Positions 56,019 to 64,000 of a stretch of 64,000 nt of DNA are shown piece by piece (position 1 is the stretch's first letter; every line of letters begins with the position of its first letter). Under the pieces are notes generated by a model. It was not told the DNA's origin. It ran no database searches and was given only the letters and a program-made list of their open reading frames with translations. This stretch comes from a virus (lineage: Duplodnaviria > Caudoviricetes), in the IMG/VR virus record IMGVR_UViG_3300050587_000146, positions 390 through 64,389 of that record; one strand, 5' to 3'. A program made the translations under genes and the position numbers.

Positions 56019-56166
56019 TTTGTCGGTTACTTGTCAAAACTGTAAATTTTGGAATGGTGGTTGTGATGACCCCGAGGAATATGTTCATCGGGATACTGGT
56101 GAGTCTTGTTGTCGGTATCATCCAGACGCAATTCCTGAATCCGAGTATGAGGATGGTGGCGAGTAA
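56011..56166 (+). CDS. Small Cys-rich protein
   Basis: CQNCKFW..GC...CC. Confidence 0.45.
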   Translation: MSNLSVTCQNCKFWNGGCDDPEEYVHRDTGESCCRYHPDAIPESEYEDGGE

Positions 56167-56885
56167 TGAAGGTCATTATTCCGTCATACAAACGACCTGA
56201 CAGAGTATACGCGGCGACATACTTACCCGAGGCGTATATCTGTATTGCCGAGGATGAGTTCGAAGCGTACAAGGCAAATTACGGCTCTAACAGATTAATC
56301 GTAATGCCTCCCGGCGTTCAAGGTAATATTGCTCGGGTAAGAAACTGGATTTTGAACAATGTGGACAACGACGAAATCGTGATGATGGACGACGACGTTC
56401 GCTATCTTTCCAGAACAAACGAGCGGGAGTGTCATCCACTTGAAGCAAATCAGGCGATGGATTTTTTCGAGAACGGGTTCCTGATGGCAGAGGACATGGG
56501 CGTGTATCTCTGGGGCATGAATGTCACTCCAGACCGTATCATGTATTGTGAGTATACTCCCTTTTCGACACAGGCTCCGATTCTCGCGACAACTTGTTGC
56601 ATTCGGCGCAATCCTCTCCGGTACGATGAGCGAATCCCGTTCAAAGAGGATTACGATTACTTTCTCCAGCATTTGAAGAAATACCGAAAGACGCTCCGGT
56701 TCAATATGTATCATTATCATCCAGACCATATTATCGGGTCGGGCGGGTGCATTACAAACCGGACGATGGACGCGGAGAAAGAACAGGCGATGATTCTGCA
56801 AAAGAAGTGGGGAAGTAATATCGTCAAGGTCGATTTCGGGCGGTCAATTAATCCGATTGTCAAAAGCCCACTCGCTGGAATCTGA
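56166..56885 (+). CDS. GT-A fold glycosyltransferase (TAGT/GREB1-like)
   Basis: IIPSYKRP, ARVRNWIL, MMDDD (DxD), KEDYDY, GGC. Confidence 0.75.
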   Translation: MKVIIPSYKRPDRVYAATYLPEAYICIAEDEFEAYKANYGSNRLIVMPPGVQGNIARVRNWILNNVDNDEIVMMDDDVRYLSRTNERECHPLEANQAMDFFENGFLMAEDMGVYLWGMNVTPDRIMYCEYTPFSTQAPILATTCCIRRNPLRYDERIPFKEDYDYFLQHLKKYRKTLRFNMYHYHPDHIIGSGGCITNRTMDAEKEQAMILQKKWGSNIVKVDFGRSINPIVKSPLAGI

Positions 56886-56988: not shown

Positions 56989-58488
56989 GTGACATCAATG
57001 GGTTACTGTACTGACATTAACGGGATACAAATGCATGATTCCTTTGTGAAAGAGCTTATTCTCGGCGATAACCTCGAAGTCGCGCATTATACGGTGAGTC
57101 GGTTCATTACAAAGCGTGACCTACAAGTGTTGCACAAGAAAATCATTCACAACGTATGTACGAACAAAAACTCAATGGACTTGGCTCCGCGTGGATTCGG
57201 TAAATCGACGGCTGGCGACGTTGACCACTGTATTACTTTGATTCTCCGTAATGCAAATATTCGTATCATGATTGGTTCCAAGACCCAGACACAGGCCGAG
57301 GCGTTCTTGAAAGAAATTCGCGCTCACTTTGAGATGAATGAGGACTTAATTCGTATCTTCGGCGACTTGAAAGGAACTCCCTGGAACGATACCGAGTTCA
57401 CGGTCGGGACGCGGACAATCATCAAAAAAGAGGCGACGGTCACGGCACTCGGCGCGTCAGGCGCGGTTGTATCAAAGCATTTTGATGTAATCATGGCTGA
57501 CGACTTGGTCGGGTTCGAAAATGCTCGTACCCAGTTGCAACGCGAGAAACTCAAAGAATGGTTCTTCAGCTCGCTGTATCCGACGCTTGAGCCGGACGGC
57601 GCAATTCACGTTCTCGGTACGCGGTATCATCCTCTGGACTTGTATCAGGGCATGATTGATTCTGGCACTTATGTGATTCAGATTCAAAAGGCTCTGAATA
57701 AGGCGGGCAAATCGCTCTGGGAAACCAAATTCACAACAAAGAAACTCATGCAAATCAAACGCGACACGCCTATTACAATCTGGAACATGCAATATCAGAA
57801 TGATGTCGAGTTGGCAAAAGGTACTATTTTCAAAGCGTCTTACTTCCGGTATTACCAAGGATACGAAATCAACGAGGTCGGCGATGTCCTGGTTCGGGTC
57901 AAGAACGAAGAGACTGGCATGGAATCAACGGTTCCGGTTCATGTGTTCTTTGGGGCTGACTTAGCAATCAAGGAGAAAGAGTTGAGCGACTATTTCGTAT
58001 TGATGGCAATCGGAGTCAGTCAGGACAACGACATATTTGTTCTGAAGTATATCAAAGAACGGTTATCATTCGATTCACAACAGGACGCAATCTGCAATAT
58101 GGCAACATTGTTCCCGTTTGTTGGTCGTATCGGGATTGAAACGGTCGGCTATCAGTACGCACTTTACCAAATGCTCGAAAAGAACTCGACGTTGCCAGTA
58201 TCCGAAATTAACACGTCAAAAGACAAGGTGGTTCGGGCGCAACGAAGGTCGGTTTTATTCGAGAACGGTAAGGTGCATTTCTTATCTGATATGCAAGACC
58301 TGGAGGAAAACCTCCTCCTGTTCCCTGATGACGAGCATGATGACCTATTTGATGGTTTGGATTTTGCAATAACGGCAAGTGAAGAGAGTCACGCAAATGT
58401 CCTCGATTACATGGCTCAAGAGTACGCAAAGGCTCAAGCTGATGAATTTCGGCAAGCAGAGGCGGCTCGGAAAGCTCACTTAAATTAA
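56989..58488 (+). CDS. Terminase large subunit
   Basis: APRGFGKST Walker A, IMADDLV Walker B, GTRYHPLDLY, nuclease GADLA...EHDDLFDG. Confidence 0.93.
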   Translation: MTSMGYCTDINGIQMHDSFVKELILGDNLEVAHYTVSRFITKRDLQVLHKKIIHNVCTNKNSMDLAPRGFGKSTAGDVDHCITLILRNANIRIMIGSKTQTQAEAFLKEIRAHFEMNEDLIRIFGDLKGTPWNDTEFTVGTRTIIKKEATVTALGASGAVVSKHFDVIMADDLVGFENARTQLQREKLKEWFFSSLYPTLEPDGAIHVLGTRYHPLDLYQGMIDSGTYVIQIQKALNKAGKSLWETKFTTKKLMQIKRDTPITIWNMQYQNDVELAKGTIFKASYFRYYQGYEINEVGDVLVRVKNEETGMESTVPVHVFFGADLAIKEKELSDYFVLMAIGVSQDNDIFVLKYIKERLSFDSQQDAICNMATLFPFVGRIGIETVGYQYALYQMLEKNSTLPVSEINTSKDKVVRAQRRSVLFENGKVHFLSDMQDLEENLLLFPDDEHDDLFDGLDFAITASEESHANVLDYMAQEYAKAQADEFRQAEAARKAHLN

Positions 58489-58503: not shown

Positions 58504-60318
58504 ATGGCTGAAAAACGTACAAGTATCGCTAATTTAGCGGAAATGTTCACGAATTTTTATTTCAAACAAAAGGATTCTTATGACGCTCCGGCGAGTTCGA
58601 GCAGCGGGGTTCACAACGCTGGTCAACCACTCGTTCCGCGTGAGCAAGGCATTGATGTCTCTCCGTTTCAGTATCAGTTTCAAACTGGGGTCAACTTAAT
58701 CACTGCGCCGCGAGGCGAGCAGACTGAATTGACTCCTTTTCAAACACTCCGAAAGCTTGCCGACAACTGTGACTTGGTTCGGCTGGCGATTGAGATGAGG
58801 AAAGAACAATTGTCTGGTATGGAGTGGGATATTGTTTCCGCTGAAAAGGATGACAAAAACGACTATTCTACGGACATTGCAAAAGTAAAAGCATTCTTTA
58901 ATAAACCGGACGGTGTCAATAATTTTTACGACTGGCTCGGCATGATTCTGGAAGAGGTGCTGGTCACTGACTCGTTGTCACTTTATAAGCGTAAAAACCG
59001 AGGTGGTGGGTTCTTTGGGCTTGAGGTTATTGATGGTACAACTATCAAACCGTTACGGGATGCATGGGGTCGTACCCCGTTGCCTCCGTTAGCCGCGTAT
59101 CAACAAATCATTTATGGGTATCCGCAAAGCGAATACACGATTGAAGAGCTGTTATACAAACCTAAAAACAGGAGGGTATGGACTCCTTACGGGTTTTCTC
59201 CAGTGGAGTACATTATCATGACGATTAATATCGCGTTACGAAAGCAACAGTTTACTCTTGGGTTCTATACCGAGGGCAACTTGCCTGACGGCGGTATGTT
59301 CGGCGTTCCTGAACAATGGACTCCTGCTCAAATCAAACAGTTTCAGGAGTGGTGGGACGCAATGATGGCGGGGAATTTCAAAAACCGTCAGAGAATGCGG
59401 TTTGTTCCCGGTAAAGGCGGTTACATTCCGACCAAATCATTCGAATTTCAACAGGAATTTGAAGAATGGATGGCGCGGGTTGTTTGTACTGCGTTCCAAA
59501 TCAATTCACAACCGTTCTTAAAATTCACGAACAGGGCGACGGCTCAAGTTCAGGATGACCAACAGACTGACCTCGGGTTGAATCCCTTATGCATTTATCT
59601 CGGCAGTATTCTGACAGAGGTCGTACAGGCCAAAGATGGCTTGAATATGCCTCACTTGAAATTCAAGTGGATGACTGAAAAGAAAGCTGACGAGCAAGTT
59701 ATCATTGACAGAAACGTCAAGTACGTTCAGGCCGGTATTCTCGGTATCGATGAAGTACGGATAGAACTCGGTCGTGACCCACTTATCAGCGGCGGCGTTC
59801 CTCCGTATCTACTCGTTGGAGGTCAGCCTATGTTTTTGACTCCCGAAATAATTCAAAAAATGCTCGCCGAGGAGAACTTCCAGACTCCGACTGAAAAGCA
59901 AGAAACGGCGATGCAAATCGCTCAATCCGGCGTAATGGAGTCTAAAGGCGGCAAAGACAGCACTTTCAAGCCGAAGATGGGGGCGGTGGGCAATGACGCG
60001 ATTGATGAGGAGGAGGATACTCCTACAAAGGCCAAGGCTGGTAATCGTACTAAGAAAGCACCGACCGACGCTGAAAAAGCGGTTATCGCGGAACTCAAAC
60101 GCTGGGAAAAGTTCGCTGTAAATCGGCTTGGCAAGGTCGGGCGTGACTTCGAAACTGAATTGATTCCCGAGCTACTGGTTAAGAGAATCAAACAAGACCT
60201 CGCCGATGCTCGTACTGCGGACGAAGTAAGGATGGTTTTCAAGAGCGGGACGAACAAAATGCTCCGTGAAAACTGGCTCAAGGTTCAGGAGGACGCGGCT
60301 GAACTAAAAAAAGATTAG
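58504..60318 (+). CDS. Portal protein with C-terminal extension
   Basis: Follows TerL; GFSPVEYI, FYTEGNLP, VARVVCTAF-like and GILGIDEVRIELGRDP motifs. Confidence 0.88.
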   Translation: MAEKRTSIANLAEMFTNFYFKQKDSYDAPASSSSGVHNAGQPLVPREQGIDVSPFQYQFQTGVNLITAPRGEQTELTPFQTLRKLADNCDLVRLAIEMRKEQLSGMEWDIVSAEKDDKNDYSTDIAKVKAFFNKPDGVNNFYDWLGMILEEVLVTDSLSLYKRKNRGGGFFGLEVIDGTTIKPLRDAWGRTPLPPLAAYQQIIYGYPQSEYTIEELLYKPKNRRVWTPYGFSPVEYIIMTINIALRKQQFTLGFYTEGNLPDGGMFGVPEQWTPAQIKQFQEWWDAMMAGNFKNRQRMRFVPGKGGYIPTKSFEFQQEFEEWMARVVCTAFQINSQPFLKFTNRATAQVQDDQQTDLGLNPLCIYLGSILTEVVQAKDGLNMPHLKFKWMTEKKADEQVIIDRNVKYVQAGILGIDEVRIELGRDPLISGGVPPYLLVGGQPMFLTPEIIQKMLAEENFQTPTEKQETAMQIAQSGVMESKGGKDSTFKPKMGAVGNDAIDEEEDTPTKAKAGNRTKKAPTDAEKAVIAELKRWEKFAVNRLGKVGRDFETELIPELLVKRIKQDLADARTADEVRMVFKSGTNKMLRENWLKVQEDAAELKKD

Positions 60319-60355
60319 CCAAAGAGTTCGAGAAAGTGGGTCAGGACTTTTTGGC
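60306..60355 (+). other. Putative -1 programmed frameshift signal (portal to MuF)
   Basis: A-AAA-AAA (60306-60312), 5-nt spacer, 12-bp stem 60318-60329 / 60344-60355; the -1 frame is open into MuF. Confidence 0.6.
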
Positions 60356-60962
60356 ATGGTGGGAGAGGTTTGAGCAAGACCCACAAGCCGCACTCGACGA
60401 GCTTGATAAATATCACTTTGTCGGGGCGACATTCAACAATACGATGGCTCAATTCGTTGCAACTGTTTACGAGATGGGCTGGGAGGACGGATCAAAAACG
60501 CTGTCTTTTTTATTGAATGAGCAAGGACAGGTCGAAATTGAGTTCTCCAGTGTCAAGGCTTACCGCTGGGCGCAAGACTGGGCGGCAAAGATGGTGAAGC
60601 AGATTAATGAGTCCACTCGGGACATGCTCCGCGAGACTATCCAGTCCTCGGTTAATAACGAAGAGCCGTGGCAGGTTCTCAAGCAGAAGCTCATGGATGG
60701 TCATTACGCATTTTCAGAACGGCGCTGTGAGACAATCGCTCGGACAGAGAGCGGCATGGCCTATAATATCGGGGCGGTTGACTGTTGGAAAGAAAGCGAA
60801 CTGGTTGATTCTGTTCTCGTAATCGACGGTGATTATGACCCCGAATGCGAAGCCGTCAACGGTCAAACCTGGACGTTCGACGAGGCAATATTTAATCCGC
60901 TTGAACATCCAAACTGTGTGCGTGAGTTCTTCCCAAATCTGAAAGGAGTGGGTTCAAAATGA
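60336..60962 (+). CDS. Phage head morphogenesis protein (MuF / SPP1 gp7)
   Basis: RCETIARTESGMAYN, LEHPNCVR; lacks a clear RBS. Confidence 0.85.
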   Translation: MGQDFLAWWERFEQDPQAALDELDKYHFVGATFNNTMAQFVATVYEMGWEDGSKTLSFLLNEQGQVEIEFSSVKAYRWAQDWAAKMVKQINESTRDMLRETIQSSVNNEEPWQVLKQKLMDGHYAFSERRCETIARTESGMAYNIGAVDCWKESELVDSVLVIDGDYDPECEAVNGQTWTFDEAIFNPLEHPNCVREFFPNLKGVGSK

Positions 60963-61906
60963 AGAAAGTTGAAGTAATCAGGGAGGGTAAAGATATTCAG
61001 GACGCGGTTGAGCTTGTGAAAGTGGCAAAGCCTGAAAACCTCCTCGAAAAGTATAATCCGTATCACGACCAAAAAGGTCGGTTTTCACAAGGCGGCGGGG
61101 CACATACGGTCGTCCCGCAAGGCGGTGTCGGGAGGTTCTCTACTGCTCTGGCATTACAGGCTCATGGTCATGCAAATGCTGGATACCAAACTCCGTTTGA
61201 CACTCAAGAAGTGGTTCGGGAGCGGGTTGAATTACAGGGCATGTTAGCGACGCACCAGTCAACTCATGAAATCAATACTCCTCAACGAGACGCGTTACGG
61301 CAAAAAGCGGAGGATAAACTATACGAATTATCTGGTCAAGAAAAATATTCGGGCGGGCAAGTCCTCCAGAACAAGCAAGCGTTCATTGTAATTGGCCCTC
61401 CTGCGGCTGGCAAATCCTCGTCAATGGCAGAGCCGCTTTCTCGCCAGCATAACGCGAGATTGATTGATTCTGATGACGCGAAAAAATTACTCCCTGAATA
61501 TAAGGGCGGCAAGGGCGCGGGGGTAGTTCATGAAGAATCTTCAATAATTGCTCACAAAGTACGTGACCGAGCAATCAATAACGGCGACAACATCGTTCTC
61601 CCGATTGTTGGTAAAACAGAGGGAAGTATCACGGGGATTCGTGACAGCCTGAAGTCAAAGGGGTATGATGTTCACTTGGTTCTGGTCGATGTCAATAAAC
61701 AAGAGGCCACAAAACGAGCAATTGATAGATGGAAACATACTGGTCGATTCGTTGACCCGAATTATGTGTATAATGGAGTGGGTGACAGACCGTCAAAGAA
61801 CTATGACAAATTAAAATATCAATTTACGTCATACTCCAAGTATAACAACAACGTGCCAAAAGGCACAAACCCGATTCTGGTTGACTCCGGTACTGGAAAA
61901 TTGTAA
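60959..61906 (+). CDS. Zeta-toxin-family P-loop kinase with N-terminal NPYHDxxGRF motif
   Basis: GPPAAGKS, IDSDDAKKLLPEY, VHEESS, GYDVHLVLVDV, GRFVD. Confidence 0.75.
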   Translation: MKKVEVIREGKDIQDAVELVKVAKPENLLEKYNPYHDQKGRFSQGGGAHTVVPQGGVGRFSTALALQAHGHANAGYQTPFDTQEVVRERVELQGMLATHQSTHEINTPQRDALRQKAEDKLYELSGQEKYSGGQVLQNKQAFIVIGPPAAGKSSSMAEPLSRQHNARLIDSDDAKKLLPEYKGGKGAGVVHEESSIIAHKVRDRAINNGDNIVLPIVGKTEGSITGIRDSLKSKGYDVHLVLVDVNKQEATKRAIDRWKHTGRFVDPNYVYNGVGDRPSKNYDKLKYQFTSYSKYNNNVPKGTNPILVDSGTGKL

Positions 61907-62222: not shown

Positions 62223-62461
62223 TTCTGTATCCAATTTGAGCATTTTATCAAGAGCATATTTATTTAGAATTGATTGAGCCTCTTCTGACGGCTCATTTTG
62301 TAAGTTTACAATGTATCTTGTTTTATTCTTCATTGTTTTATTCCTTTCATGCAAGATAAACATTGTATAATGCACACAGCTCAATCCTTGAGTTCAATTT
62401 GAAAAAATTTATCGGTGATGTTATACTTATTTAATAACATGCCAACTTGGAGGGAAACGTT

Positions 62462-64000
62462 ATGGAACTCATGGTCAGAATCCGTCATGTCGCGATTTAT
62501 TTGAGGAAATCTCGGGATGATGGTGAGTACGAGGACGCACTTGCTAAACATCGGGAAACTCTTGTAAATTACGCCAATAAAAATAATTGGACGTATGAAA
62601 TTTATGAGGAGATTGCCTCGGGGGAAAAGATAGAATTTAGGCCGAAGATGCAGGAGTTACTGAAACATATCGCCAGCGGGTTATATGACGGGGTTCTGGT
62701 AGTTGATATTGACAGACTCGGGCGTGGTGATTTCGAGGAATGGGGCAGAATTATTAAAGTATTTTTACTCTCTGATACTCTTATCATTACTCCTCAAAGG
62801 GTTTATGACCCGTCAGAGGAATCTGATGAAATCTCCCTGGACTTACAGTCGTTCTTTGCCAAATTTGAGTATAAAAAGATTAAAAAACGTCTGTACGGCG
62901 GCAAGGTATCCGGGGCAAAAAAGGGCATGTGGACGAATGGAAAACCTCCGTTTCCCTATAAATATCTCCGAGATACAAAAGAGGTTATCGTCGATGAAAG
63001 TAAACGTCCGGTTTATATACTGATTAAAGAAATGTTTCTGGAAAAGGATATGGGACTTGTCCCGATTGCTCGCTGGCTTAACCAAAATCGAATTAAACTA
63101 CCGTCAGGTAAAACTCCCGTCGAAGATGGTCGTTCTTGCGGGTGGGAAAGTACAACAGTTCACAGATTATTAATTCATCCGTTCCATATGGGTTATGTAG
63201 TCTTGGGAAAAAGTAAAGGTAGCGGGCATAAAAAGAAAGGCGGTAAAGTAATTAAACAACCAAAAGAATCCTGGACGGTCGGAAAGGGTAATCATGAAAT
63301 ATTAAAAACAGAGGAAGAACATCAAAGGATACTGGCAAAATTAGCCGAAAATAATAAAATGCCGTCTCGTACTAAACAAGCTGTCAATCCTGTTTCCGGC
63401 TTACTTTATTGCAAAAAGTGCGGTTGTAAAATGCAGTTCCGGCAAAAAACTCTCAAAGATGGTAAGAGACATTTTTATACAGTTTGCGTTCATGAGTATC
63501 CTGACGGGACTCAATGTGAACAGGTTGGCACTAAGCTCGATGATGACTTTTTCGAGGCTTTATATGTCAAAATCATCAAGTTAAATACCAAAAAGATGTT
63601 ATCAGAGCGTGATAAAAGTGACGCTCAAAATAAACTTCGAGCGTTACTTGAGACTGCAAAGTACGACCTGGACAGGACAAATAAGGCTTTAAAAAATTTA
63701 TACGAAGCGTTTGAAATGGGGGATATTCCAAGGGTAGATTTTGTGGAAAGACGGGCAATTCGTGACAAGGAGAAAAATGAACTTGCCGCTAAAATTGCAG
63801 AGTTAGAGGTACAAATCGCCGTTACTTCAACGGGCATTACCGAAGAGCAACTTCTCCAATTAATTCAAAAATTCAAAGACAGTTGGTGGTCGCTTGAAAC
63901 GAATCAAGAGAAAAATCAACTTCTTCTTCAAATAGTTGATAAAATTATTTACAATAAATGGATAGACGGGACTGTTGCCTTAGATGTCATTTTTAAGTAA
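62462..64000 (+). CDS. Large serine recombinase (integrase)
   Basis: IYLRKS catalytic Ser, DIDRLGRG, recombinase domain, Zn ribbon LLYCKKCG, coiled coil; stop TAA at 63998-64000. Confidence 0.93.
   Translation: MELMVRIRHVAIYLRKSRDDGEYEDALAKHRETLVNYANKNNWTYEIYEEIASGEKIEFRPKMQELLKHIASGLYDGVLVVDIDRLGRGDFEEWGRIIKVFLLSDTLIITPQRVYDPSEESDEISLDLQSFFAKFEYKKIKKRLYGGKVSGAKKGMWTNGKPPFPYKYLRDTKEVIVDESKRPVYILIKEMFLEKDMGLVPIARWLNQNRIKLPSGKTPVEDGRSCGWESTTVHRLLIHPFHMGYVVLGKSKGSGHKKKGGKVIKQPKESWTVGKGNHEILKTEEEHQRILAKLAENNKMPSRTKQAVNPVSGLLYCKKCGCKMQFRQKTLKDGKRHFYTVCVHEYPDGTQCEQVGTKLDDDFFEALYVKIIKLNTKKMLSERDKSDAQNKLRALLETAKYDLDRTNKALKNLYEAFEMGDIPRVDFVERRAIRDKEKNELAAKIAELEVQIAVTSTGITEEQLLQLIQKFKDSWWSLETNQEKNQLLLQIVDKIIYNKWIDGTVALDVIFK

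Follow-up and report, generated by a model that had tools for sequence, protein, structure and literature searches.

A candidate programmed -1 frameshift site between the portal and MuF genes of a Caudoviricetes provirus

Described recoding sites and portal-MuF fusions

Few phage proteins have been studied as intensively as the portal. The analysis presented here concerns the junction of the portal gene and the following MuF gene in a 64,000-nucleotide (nt) stretch of viral DNA (the window), which covers nearly all of the 64,389 bases of the IMG/VR provirus record IMGVR_UViG_3300050587_000146 (Duplodnaviria; Caudoviricetes) and has its genes exclusively on the + strand. The portal gene of the window ends directly after a slippery A_AAA_AAA heptamer, the MuF domain is encoded in the -1 frame, and the heptamer is flanked by an upstream Shine-Dalgarno (SD)-like AGGAGG and a downstream hairpin. 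Judged from the sequence, this junction is probably the site of a programmed -1 ribosomal frameshift (PRF) that yields a portal-MuF fusion of 819 amino acids (aa).

By analogy, the site would be of the dnaX/IS911 type. In E. coli dnaX (tau/gamma), as in the window, an SD-like element, a poly-A/Lys heptamer and then a hairpin (5–6 nt downstream in dnaX) follow one another; dnaX has two products with a common N-terminus in a fixed ratio, and the window would likewise have two. The SD-like element of dnaX is located 10 nt upstream of its heptamer, and that of the window 13 nt upstream. In contrast, the dnaX shift truncates the protein whereas that of the window would add a whole domain, the heptamer of the window ends in A rather than G, and the genes are unrelated. 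dnaX is mirrored more closely by three relatives with fused genes (L002, L005 and L084), in which the -1 frame reaches a stop 3 nt past an A9 run.

The tail assembly chaperone genes G/GT use a -1 frameshift too, both in lambda and in the majority of long-tailed phages (Xu, Hendrix and Duda 2004, as cited in PMC6316719 and PMC3483164). As proposed for the window, the G/GT shift lies in a morphogenesis operon, gives mostly a short product and a smaller amount of one with a C-terminal extension, and is often unannotated; the ratio of the G/GT products matters for assembly and the site is conserved. However, the chaperones are not incorporated into the virion, of which portal and MuF form part. 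The possibility that the window site is itself a G/GT site, for which a tail chaperone gene pair directly before the tape measure gene would be expected, was rejected, as the genes are portal and MuF beside TerL and the likeness is one of mechanism only. Capsid genes provide further cases. In phage T7, the -1 frameshift of gene 10A/10B adds a domain to the major capsid protein. The capsid protein of MSTV1-like archaeal viruses gains an immunoglobulin (Ig) domain by a -1 shift, and one relative is directly fused (PMC11375127). The extra domain of the MSTV1-like capsid is carried by a fraction of the subunits and the fused and frameshifted states alternate, as would be the case for the window and its relatives. 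The capsid cases extend a capsid subunit with an Ig-like decoration, whereas the window involves the portal and an internal head protein.

The two domains themselves are known in the fused state. In-frame portal-MuF fusions exist in Microbacterium phage clusters EA3/EA5/EA8/EB (PMC7302621), and Arthrobacter phage Sonali is annotated with a portal-MuF fusion; the fused genes of cultured relatives encode 775–790 aa. The Microbacterium and Sonali proteins have the same two domains in the same order and are colinear with the shifted product of the window. They are simple fusions by annotation, with no recoding described, whereas standard decoding of the window stops after the portal. A few copies of gp7 reach the SPP1 procapsid through their binding to the portal, and toxins are found on MuF proteins (PMC6316719, which cites Jamet et al. 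2017 for the MuF polymorphic toxins). The small number of gp7 per SPP1 head, on which the original prediction for this locus had drawn, is thus stated in that source. The link between SPP1 gp6 and gp7 is non-covalent and the two proteins are separately translated, whereas in the window the link would be covalent and made by recoding. The SPP1/MuF toxin loci have toxin cargo; in the window, a zeta-toxin-like gene follows MuF as a separate open reading frame (ORF) that is not fused to it.

No published description of recoding at a portal/MuF pair, or in a portal gene, was found in the open-access literature, in which portal-MuF fusions and other phage frameshifts were found. This agrees with the original prediction, which knew of no described case at this junction. 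The mechanism is of a known kind, and its use at the portal/MuF gene pair is new. If true, a short cassette of about 70 nt would provide the genetic means for the 12-fold portal ring to recruit a few MuF/gp7 proteins together with the attached toxins. It would also account for the occurrence of portal and MuF as one protein in some phages and as two in others, and the startless MuF genes and "truncated" portals of many metagenomic phages would be one recoded gene, whose annotation could be corrected.

The portal/MuF junction of the window

The portal gene (58504..60318, + strand) has its codons beginning at positions equal to 1 mod 3 and encodes, in the zero frame, a protein of 604 aa with the C-terminus ...AAELKKD*. 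Its identity was assigned from the ORF list, Pfam and PHROG. The protein matches PF04860 (Phage_portal; E 1.4e-19, 70.9 bits versus a cut-off of 39.1) and phrog_2662 (portal; E 4.7e-57), and the TerL gene (56989-58488, + strand) adjoins it directly on the 5' side. The phrog_2662 profile spans both ORFs of the window, with its positions 486-684 matching the MuF frame. The MuF (SPP1 gp7-like) domain is encoded in the -1 frame (60312..60962, + strand; 216 codons and a stop). It was assigned from phrog_2468 (head morphogenesis; E 2e-15) and from its identity to P0002, the nearest relative of the portal; the match to PF04233 (23.3 bits, E 1.1e-4) is under the gathering score of 29.6. The MuF frame is 45-57% identical to the proteins P0123-P0125 and to the C-terminal part of P0002. 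PF04233 is carried by P0123-P0125 and by the fused P0005, P0006 and P0008, and P0002 lists PF04860 alone. The invariant columns ARTE...N...DGD...C...EHPNC.R.F are found in the MuF of the window.

The 3' end of the portal gene reads GCT GAA CTA AAA AAA GAT TAG. Re-reading of the sequence reproduced exactly the predicted ending and its A7 run, which forms the heptamer A_AAA_AAA (60306..60312, + strand; CTA AAA AAA) in phase with the portal frame. Also as predicted, a TGA (60300..60302, + strand) closes the -1 frame 4 nt ahead of the heptamer, and from 60303 the frame runs open through the whole MuF gene to the stop at 60960-60962. The zero-frame stop TAG (60316..60318, + strand) is located one codon past the heptamer and overlaps a conserved Leu codon, TTA, of the -1 frame. 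Because the TGA closes the -1 frame, any frame change that joins the two genes is confined to 60303-60318 (16 nt). The heptamer occupies 7 of these 16 nt and is the sole in-phase X_XXY_YYZ among them. The slip product would have 603 + 216 = 819 aa, where about 820 aa had been predicted, with the junction peptide ...AAELKKRLAKEFEK.... As the + strand of the window has nine A7 runs, the run alone is not rare, and the significance of this one rests on its phase, position and context. Read-through of the TAG was considered as well and rejected, the zero frame past the TAG being without similarity to the relatives.

Two candidate stimulators flank the heptamer. On the 3' side, RNA folding gave a stem-loop (60318..60355, + strand) of 12 bp with two G-U pairs and a 14-nt loop, in which the arm GCCAAAGAGTTC (60318-60329) pairs with GGACTTTTTGGC (60344-60355). 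The spacer between heptamer and hairpin is GATTA (60313-60317, 5 nt). The predicted spacer, coordinates and pairing were confirmed, and minimum-energy folding predicts the hairpin at -17.2 kcal/mol. Its z-score is -2.86 relative to dinucleotide shuffles, of which 1 of 200 did equally well, and -4.06 relative to mononucleotide shuffles. Folding of a 141-nt context gives the same hairpin. A stable predicted RNA structure is thus present within 5-9 nt 3' of the heptamer, as expected for PRF. On the 5' side, a perfect SD-like AGGAGG (60287..60292, + strand), absent from the original prediction, is located 13 nt upstream of the heptamer. AGGAGG occurs 35 times on the + strand of the 64 kb, and the chance of finding a copy in the 10-14 nt spacing window was estimated post hoc at about 0.3%. 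On sequence grounds, the AGGAGG, the heptamer and the hairpin complete a dnaX-like three-part signal. An Rfam search of 60100-60600 gave no match.

The first start codons in the MuF frame are GTG 60336 and TTG 60351, 17 nt and 32 nt past the portal stop. Their duplex energies with the anti-SD are -2.4 and -5.4 kcal/mol, values that 62% and 22% of random window positions equal, compared with -11.6 kcal/mol for the portal start, -8.3 kcal/mol for the zeta gene and a gene median of -7.9 kcal/mol. These energies bear out the earlier remark that MuF has no clear ribosome-binding site. No promoter-like site was found between portal and MuF on the + strand. The internal AGGAGG was considered as a ribosome-binding site for MuF and rejected, as no MuF-frame start codon follows it.

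An alternative is that portal and MuF are two ordinary genes, with MuF translated by termination-reinitiation at GTG 60336 or TTG 60351 and the A7 run, the hairpin and the AGGAGG incidental. Both distances from the portal stop are compatible with such coupling, and TTG 60351 has a marginal SD (-5.4 kcal/mol). Stand-alone MuF proteins were annotated by gene callers in relatives (P0121-P0125), and 8 of 57 junctions in the family, described below, are truly separate. However, the candidate SD sequences of MuF are far weaker than those of the neighbouring genes, and the called MuF starts in relatives fall at no conserved column. The explanation is unlikely, and it fits poorly with the comparison to the closest relatives that follows.

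Relatives of the portal were searched for among 5.8 billion proteins. The near relatives are almost all single proteins of 780-840 aa, many with both PF04860 and PF04233, and the nearest, P0002, is a fused portal-MuF of 819 aa with 61% identity. Both in a multiple alignment (A1) and by BLASTP, the shifted product LKK-RLAKEFEKVGQDFLAWW of the window aligns without gaps with VKK-DLAKEFERAGRDFLAWL of P0002, and the match of the window (...AAELKK, then RLAKEFEKVGQDFLAWW) to P0002 (...IDKVKKDLAKEFERAGRDFLAWL) runs through the slip site. Six residues, LAKEFE, are identical in both proteins and are encoded upstream of GTG 60336. With two separate genes, the codons of LAKEFE would be the 17-nt "intergenic" spacer, yet these residues are the same as the in-frame ones of P0002 at 57% overall identity, and the GTG aligns with an Ala of P0002. 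The identity to P0002 is 57% over 221 aa in the MuF part and 61-63% in the portal part. As the two are about equal, MuF shares the constraint on the portal, without decay.

Two further relatives, P0003 (586 aa, ...ALKKA*) and P0004 (583 aa, ...ILKKG*), with 49-56% identity, stop at the same column as the window (...ELKKD*), one codon past the Lys-Lys. In a maximum-likelihood tree of the portal part, the topology is (P0004,(window,(P0002,P0003))) with supports of 94/94, 100/99 and 99/97, and the outgroups are fused. A stop one codon past Lys-Lys is thus found in three of the four clade members, with the fused P0002 nested among them. The shared stop column and the nested position of P0002 indicate that the split state is old and has persisted over a path of at most 1.1 changes per site. 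The shared column is accounted for by the conserved Leu of the -1 frame, whose codon YTR, with a purine as the next base, becomes a zero-frame TAR or TGA. This account requires a frame change within the same three codons in all three lineages, a regularity at the Lys-Lys column that two ordinary genes would leave unexplained.

The portal/MuF boundary is located elsewhere in another lineage. P0124 is a stand-alone MuF protein of 260 aa whose N-terminus includes a homologue of the window portal tail (…DDATSENDIKRIFAKV…). In its lineage, the boundary is displaced upstream by 45 residues or more and is thus not fixed within the family.

The same comparison bears on the possibility that the junction is a broken gene or an artefact, either because a decaying provirus has suffered a real, inactivating loss of 1 nt from an ancestral fused portal-MuF gene, or because the homopolymer or the assembly is in error. 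The addition of a single base (A7 to A8, or GATTAG to GATTTAG) would be enough to give a P0002-like frame again. The record is classed as a provirus with 62% estimated completeness, and most relatives, cultured phages among them, are fused (39 of 57 junctions). Against this, the 216 codons of the MuF frame are uninterrupted and match the portal in conservation, the stops of P0003 and P0004 at the same column with P0002 nested in the split clade point to a break that is old and retained, and random breaks would not fall on a slippery heptamer with flanking stimulators. The A7 was also recovered by a second assembler from the same data. A Logan contig of 66,730 nt with a depth of about 26 is identical over 59800-60900, including the A7, which is short for a consensus error; contigs cannot reveal minority A7/A8 variants. 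The only run with this region comes from the metagenome of an anaerobic digester and probably represents the source sample; two other candidate sequencing runs contained next to none of the words of the region. Because of the second-assembly A7 and the clade evidence, an assembly error or a recent inactivating deletion is quite improbable.

The programmed frameshift is therefore preferred, and the original prediction of -1 PRF at this gene pair is supported by the gap-free alignment with P0002, by the shared stops one codon past Lys-Lys and by the -1 poly-A junctions of the family. In the proposed mechanism, most ribosomes would read CTA AAA AAA GAT and terminate at the TAG, giving the 604-aa portal. 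In a fraction of ribosomes, the hairpin that begins 5 nt past the heptamer would cause a pause, and the AGGAGG 13 nt before the heptamer may exert a pull. These paused ribosomes would slip by -1 on A_AAA_AAA and go on with AGA TTA GCC..., giving the 819-aa portal-MuF. The fusion would co-assemble with the plain portal, so that MuF would be present on only some of the 12 positions, inside the procapsid. The occurrence and rate of slippage, its ribosomal and not transcriptional nature, and its role in stoichiometry are inferred. The fusion would be a minority product that sets the MuF stoichiometry, and MuF would have no initiation of its own.

Portal/MuF junctions across the family

To place the window among its relatives, 240 loci with related portals were taken from IMG/VR, JGI metagenomes and GTDB genomes. 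The portal was placed by tblastn and MuF by a hidden Markov model built from the fused proteins, which gave 57 distinct junctions with MuF next to the portal. Portal and MuF are fused at 39 of them. Ordinary separate genes with an ATG were found at 8 of the 57, three with MuF at -1 (ATGA-type overlap or short gap) and five at +1. At the remaining 10 junctions, including that of the window, an in-phase poly-A run marks the split and MuF follows in the -1 frame; a poly-A split with a +1 MuF occurs at none of the 57. This uniform -1 offset of the A-run junctions would be left unexplained if portal and MuF were two ordinary genes.

The runs at the split loci are A7 in the window, A8 in L007, A9 in L077, L145 and L220, A10 in L013, L038, L069 and L078, and A13 in L133. 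The nine loci other than the window are more distant, each with an in-phase A8-A13 run and MuF at the -1 offset, and their runs fall at columns 25-40 residues upstream of that of the window. Directly after the run, the run-split loci have a conserved continuation in the -1 frame (e.g. KKK-x3-PIDRDR), and in several of them the stretch from the run to the MuF domain lacks a start codon. Eight loci are GC-rich (58-67% GC) and have no A7+ tract other than the junction run in 2.5-8 kb. Lys is encoded elsewhere in the GC-rich loci mostly by AAG, with AAA:AAG-type counts such as 0:34, 1:34 and 5:38. Since the junction holds the sole A7+ tract while Lys elsewhere is mostly AAG, selection on the homopolymer acts at the nucleotide level. 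The protein search also gave further short portals that end in EKKK and a few residues (P0028, P0067, P0085, P0090 and P0093).

The long runs of the relatives raise another explanation, that the RNA polymerase slips on the run, so that an extra A on the A7 would give minority A8 transcripts encoding the fusion as the main route. Transcriptional slippage is documented at the run lengths of the relatives, e.g. on the A9 of Thermus dnaX and in IS elements. Relatives have A9-A13 at the junction without downstream structure; the structure after the run is not significant in any of the A8-A13 relatives (z -0.6 to +1.8), compared with z -4.06 (mononucleotide) after the A7 of the window. Runs of about nine or more A/T, the length taken for transcriptional slippage, are found in L013, L038, L069 and L078 (A10), in L077, L145 and L220 (A9) and in L133 (A13), and transcriptional slippage is a serious candidate in these long-run relatives. 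In contrast, the A7 of the window is below the length that is usually needed, and the window alone has a significant hairpin at PRF spacing together with an upstream SD-like element, both of which act on the ribosome. As the main route at the window, transcriptional slippage is very improbable. Ribosomal frameshifting is favoured at the window because the A7 is short for RNA-polymerase slippage and the hairpin and the SD-like element are stimulators directed at the ribosome.

Runs of A7-A10 are also present at 11 of the 39 fused junctions. In the fused L002 (5041-5049), L005 (5017-5025) and L084 (4933-4941), and also in L082 (2388-2396), an A9 is located at ...FA(V/I/L)N(Q/R)LKKKTKR.... The first three of these have an identical gactaaacgag after the A9, which places a TAA in the -1 frame 3 nt past the run. 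By their sequence, L002, L005 and L084 would be the mirror of the window, in which a slip would give the portal-only short form.

A wider role for the slippery tract may be proposed, though with less than even confidence: the tract would be a family-wide two-product switch in both gene layouts, giving mixed dodecamers with a set number of MuF-bearing subunits that anchor cargo. In the split phages, standard decoding would give the plain portal and a slip would give portal-MuF. In the fused relatives with A9-A10 the roles would be exchanged: the fusion would come from standard decoding, and slippage would lead to the plain portal, as each of the two alternative frames is closed within 0-24 nt. 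The internal cargo in the window could be the neighbouring zeta-like toxin, delivered with the DNA.

A cultured Bacillota phage has a run of this kind as well. Thermoanaerobacterium phage THSA-485A (NC_018264.1, L243:3872-3880) encodes a fused portal-MuF of 790 aa with an A9 at residue 534, and at its junction (...ALMIKKKAQIEE...) both alternative frames are closed within 7-20 nt. Its A9 may be due to chance, the genome having 38% GC.

Several observations weigh against programmed frameshifting at the window. The slip sites of the distant relatives are located 25-80 codons upstream of the column of the window, and by sequence these sites show a family habit rather than conservation of the exact window site. 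The clade evidence from P0003 and P0004 is at the protein level and consists of the stop position only. The window has 45% GC and favours AAA over AAG (34:24), so an A-rich stretch at the conserved Lys-Lys is not improbable by itself. The A7 of the window is supported by contigs of one run, and the GTG 17 nt after the portal stop could yield free MuF by termination-reinitiation. A_AAA_AAA is also less shift-prone than A_AAA_AAG in E. coli.

Genes around the junction

The genes in this part of the window follow the series TerL, portal, MuF-like frame (208-219 codons), zeta-toxin-like gene and serine recombinase. The zeta-toxin-like kinase gene (60959..61906, + strand; PF06414 Zeta_toxin, E 5.9e-17) begins in an ATGA overlap with the MuF stop and has an SD of its own, with AAAGGAGTGGG preceding the ATG (-8.3 kcal/mol). 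It may be the MuF-associated kind of toxin cargo, as a separate ORF unfused to MuF. The protein is a P-loop kinase, of which about 130 N-terminal residues match no family. As the zeta-like gene is also at the -1 offset relative to MuF, a second frameshift from MuF into it was considered and rejected, there being no heptamer, a good SD and the ATGA overlap.

A DNA search among cultured phages gave no match, and a scan of IMG/VR with a single protein found nothing. Just before TerL, a TET-associated glycosyltransferase gene (56166-56885) matches PF20691 (E 1.3e-17) and also phrog_842 (beta-glucosyl-HMC-alpha-glucosyltransferase), and its sequence suggests that the phage DNA may carry glycosylated hydroxymethyl bases. 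At the right end of the record, a large serine recombinase (Resolvase + Recombinase + Zn ribbon; 62447-64000) directly follows the TerL-portal-MuF-zeta series, and the tail and other structural genes are located at the left end of the window. From the position of the recombinase relative to these left-end structural genes, the head module appears to be split by the integration site.

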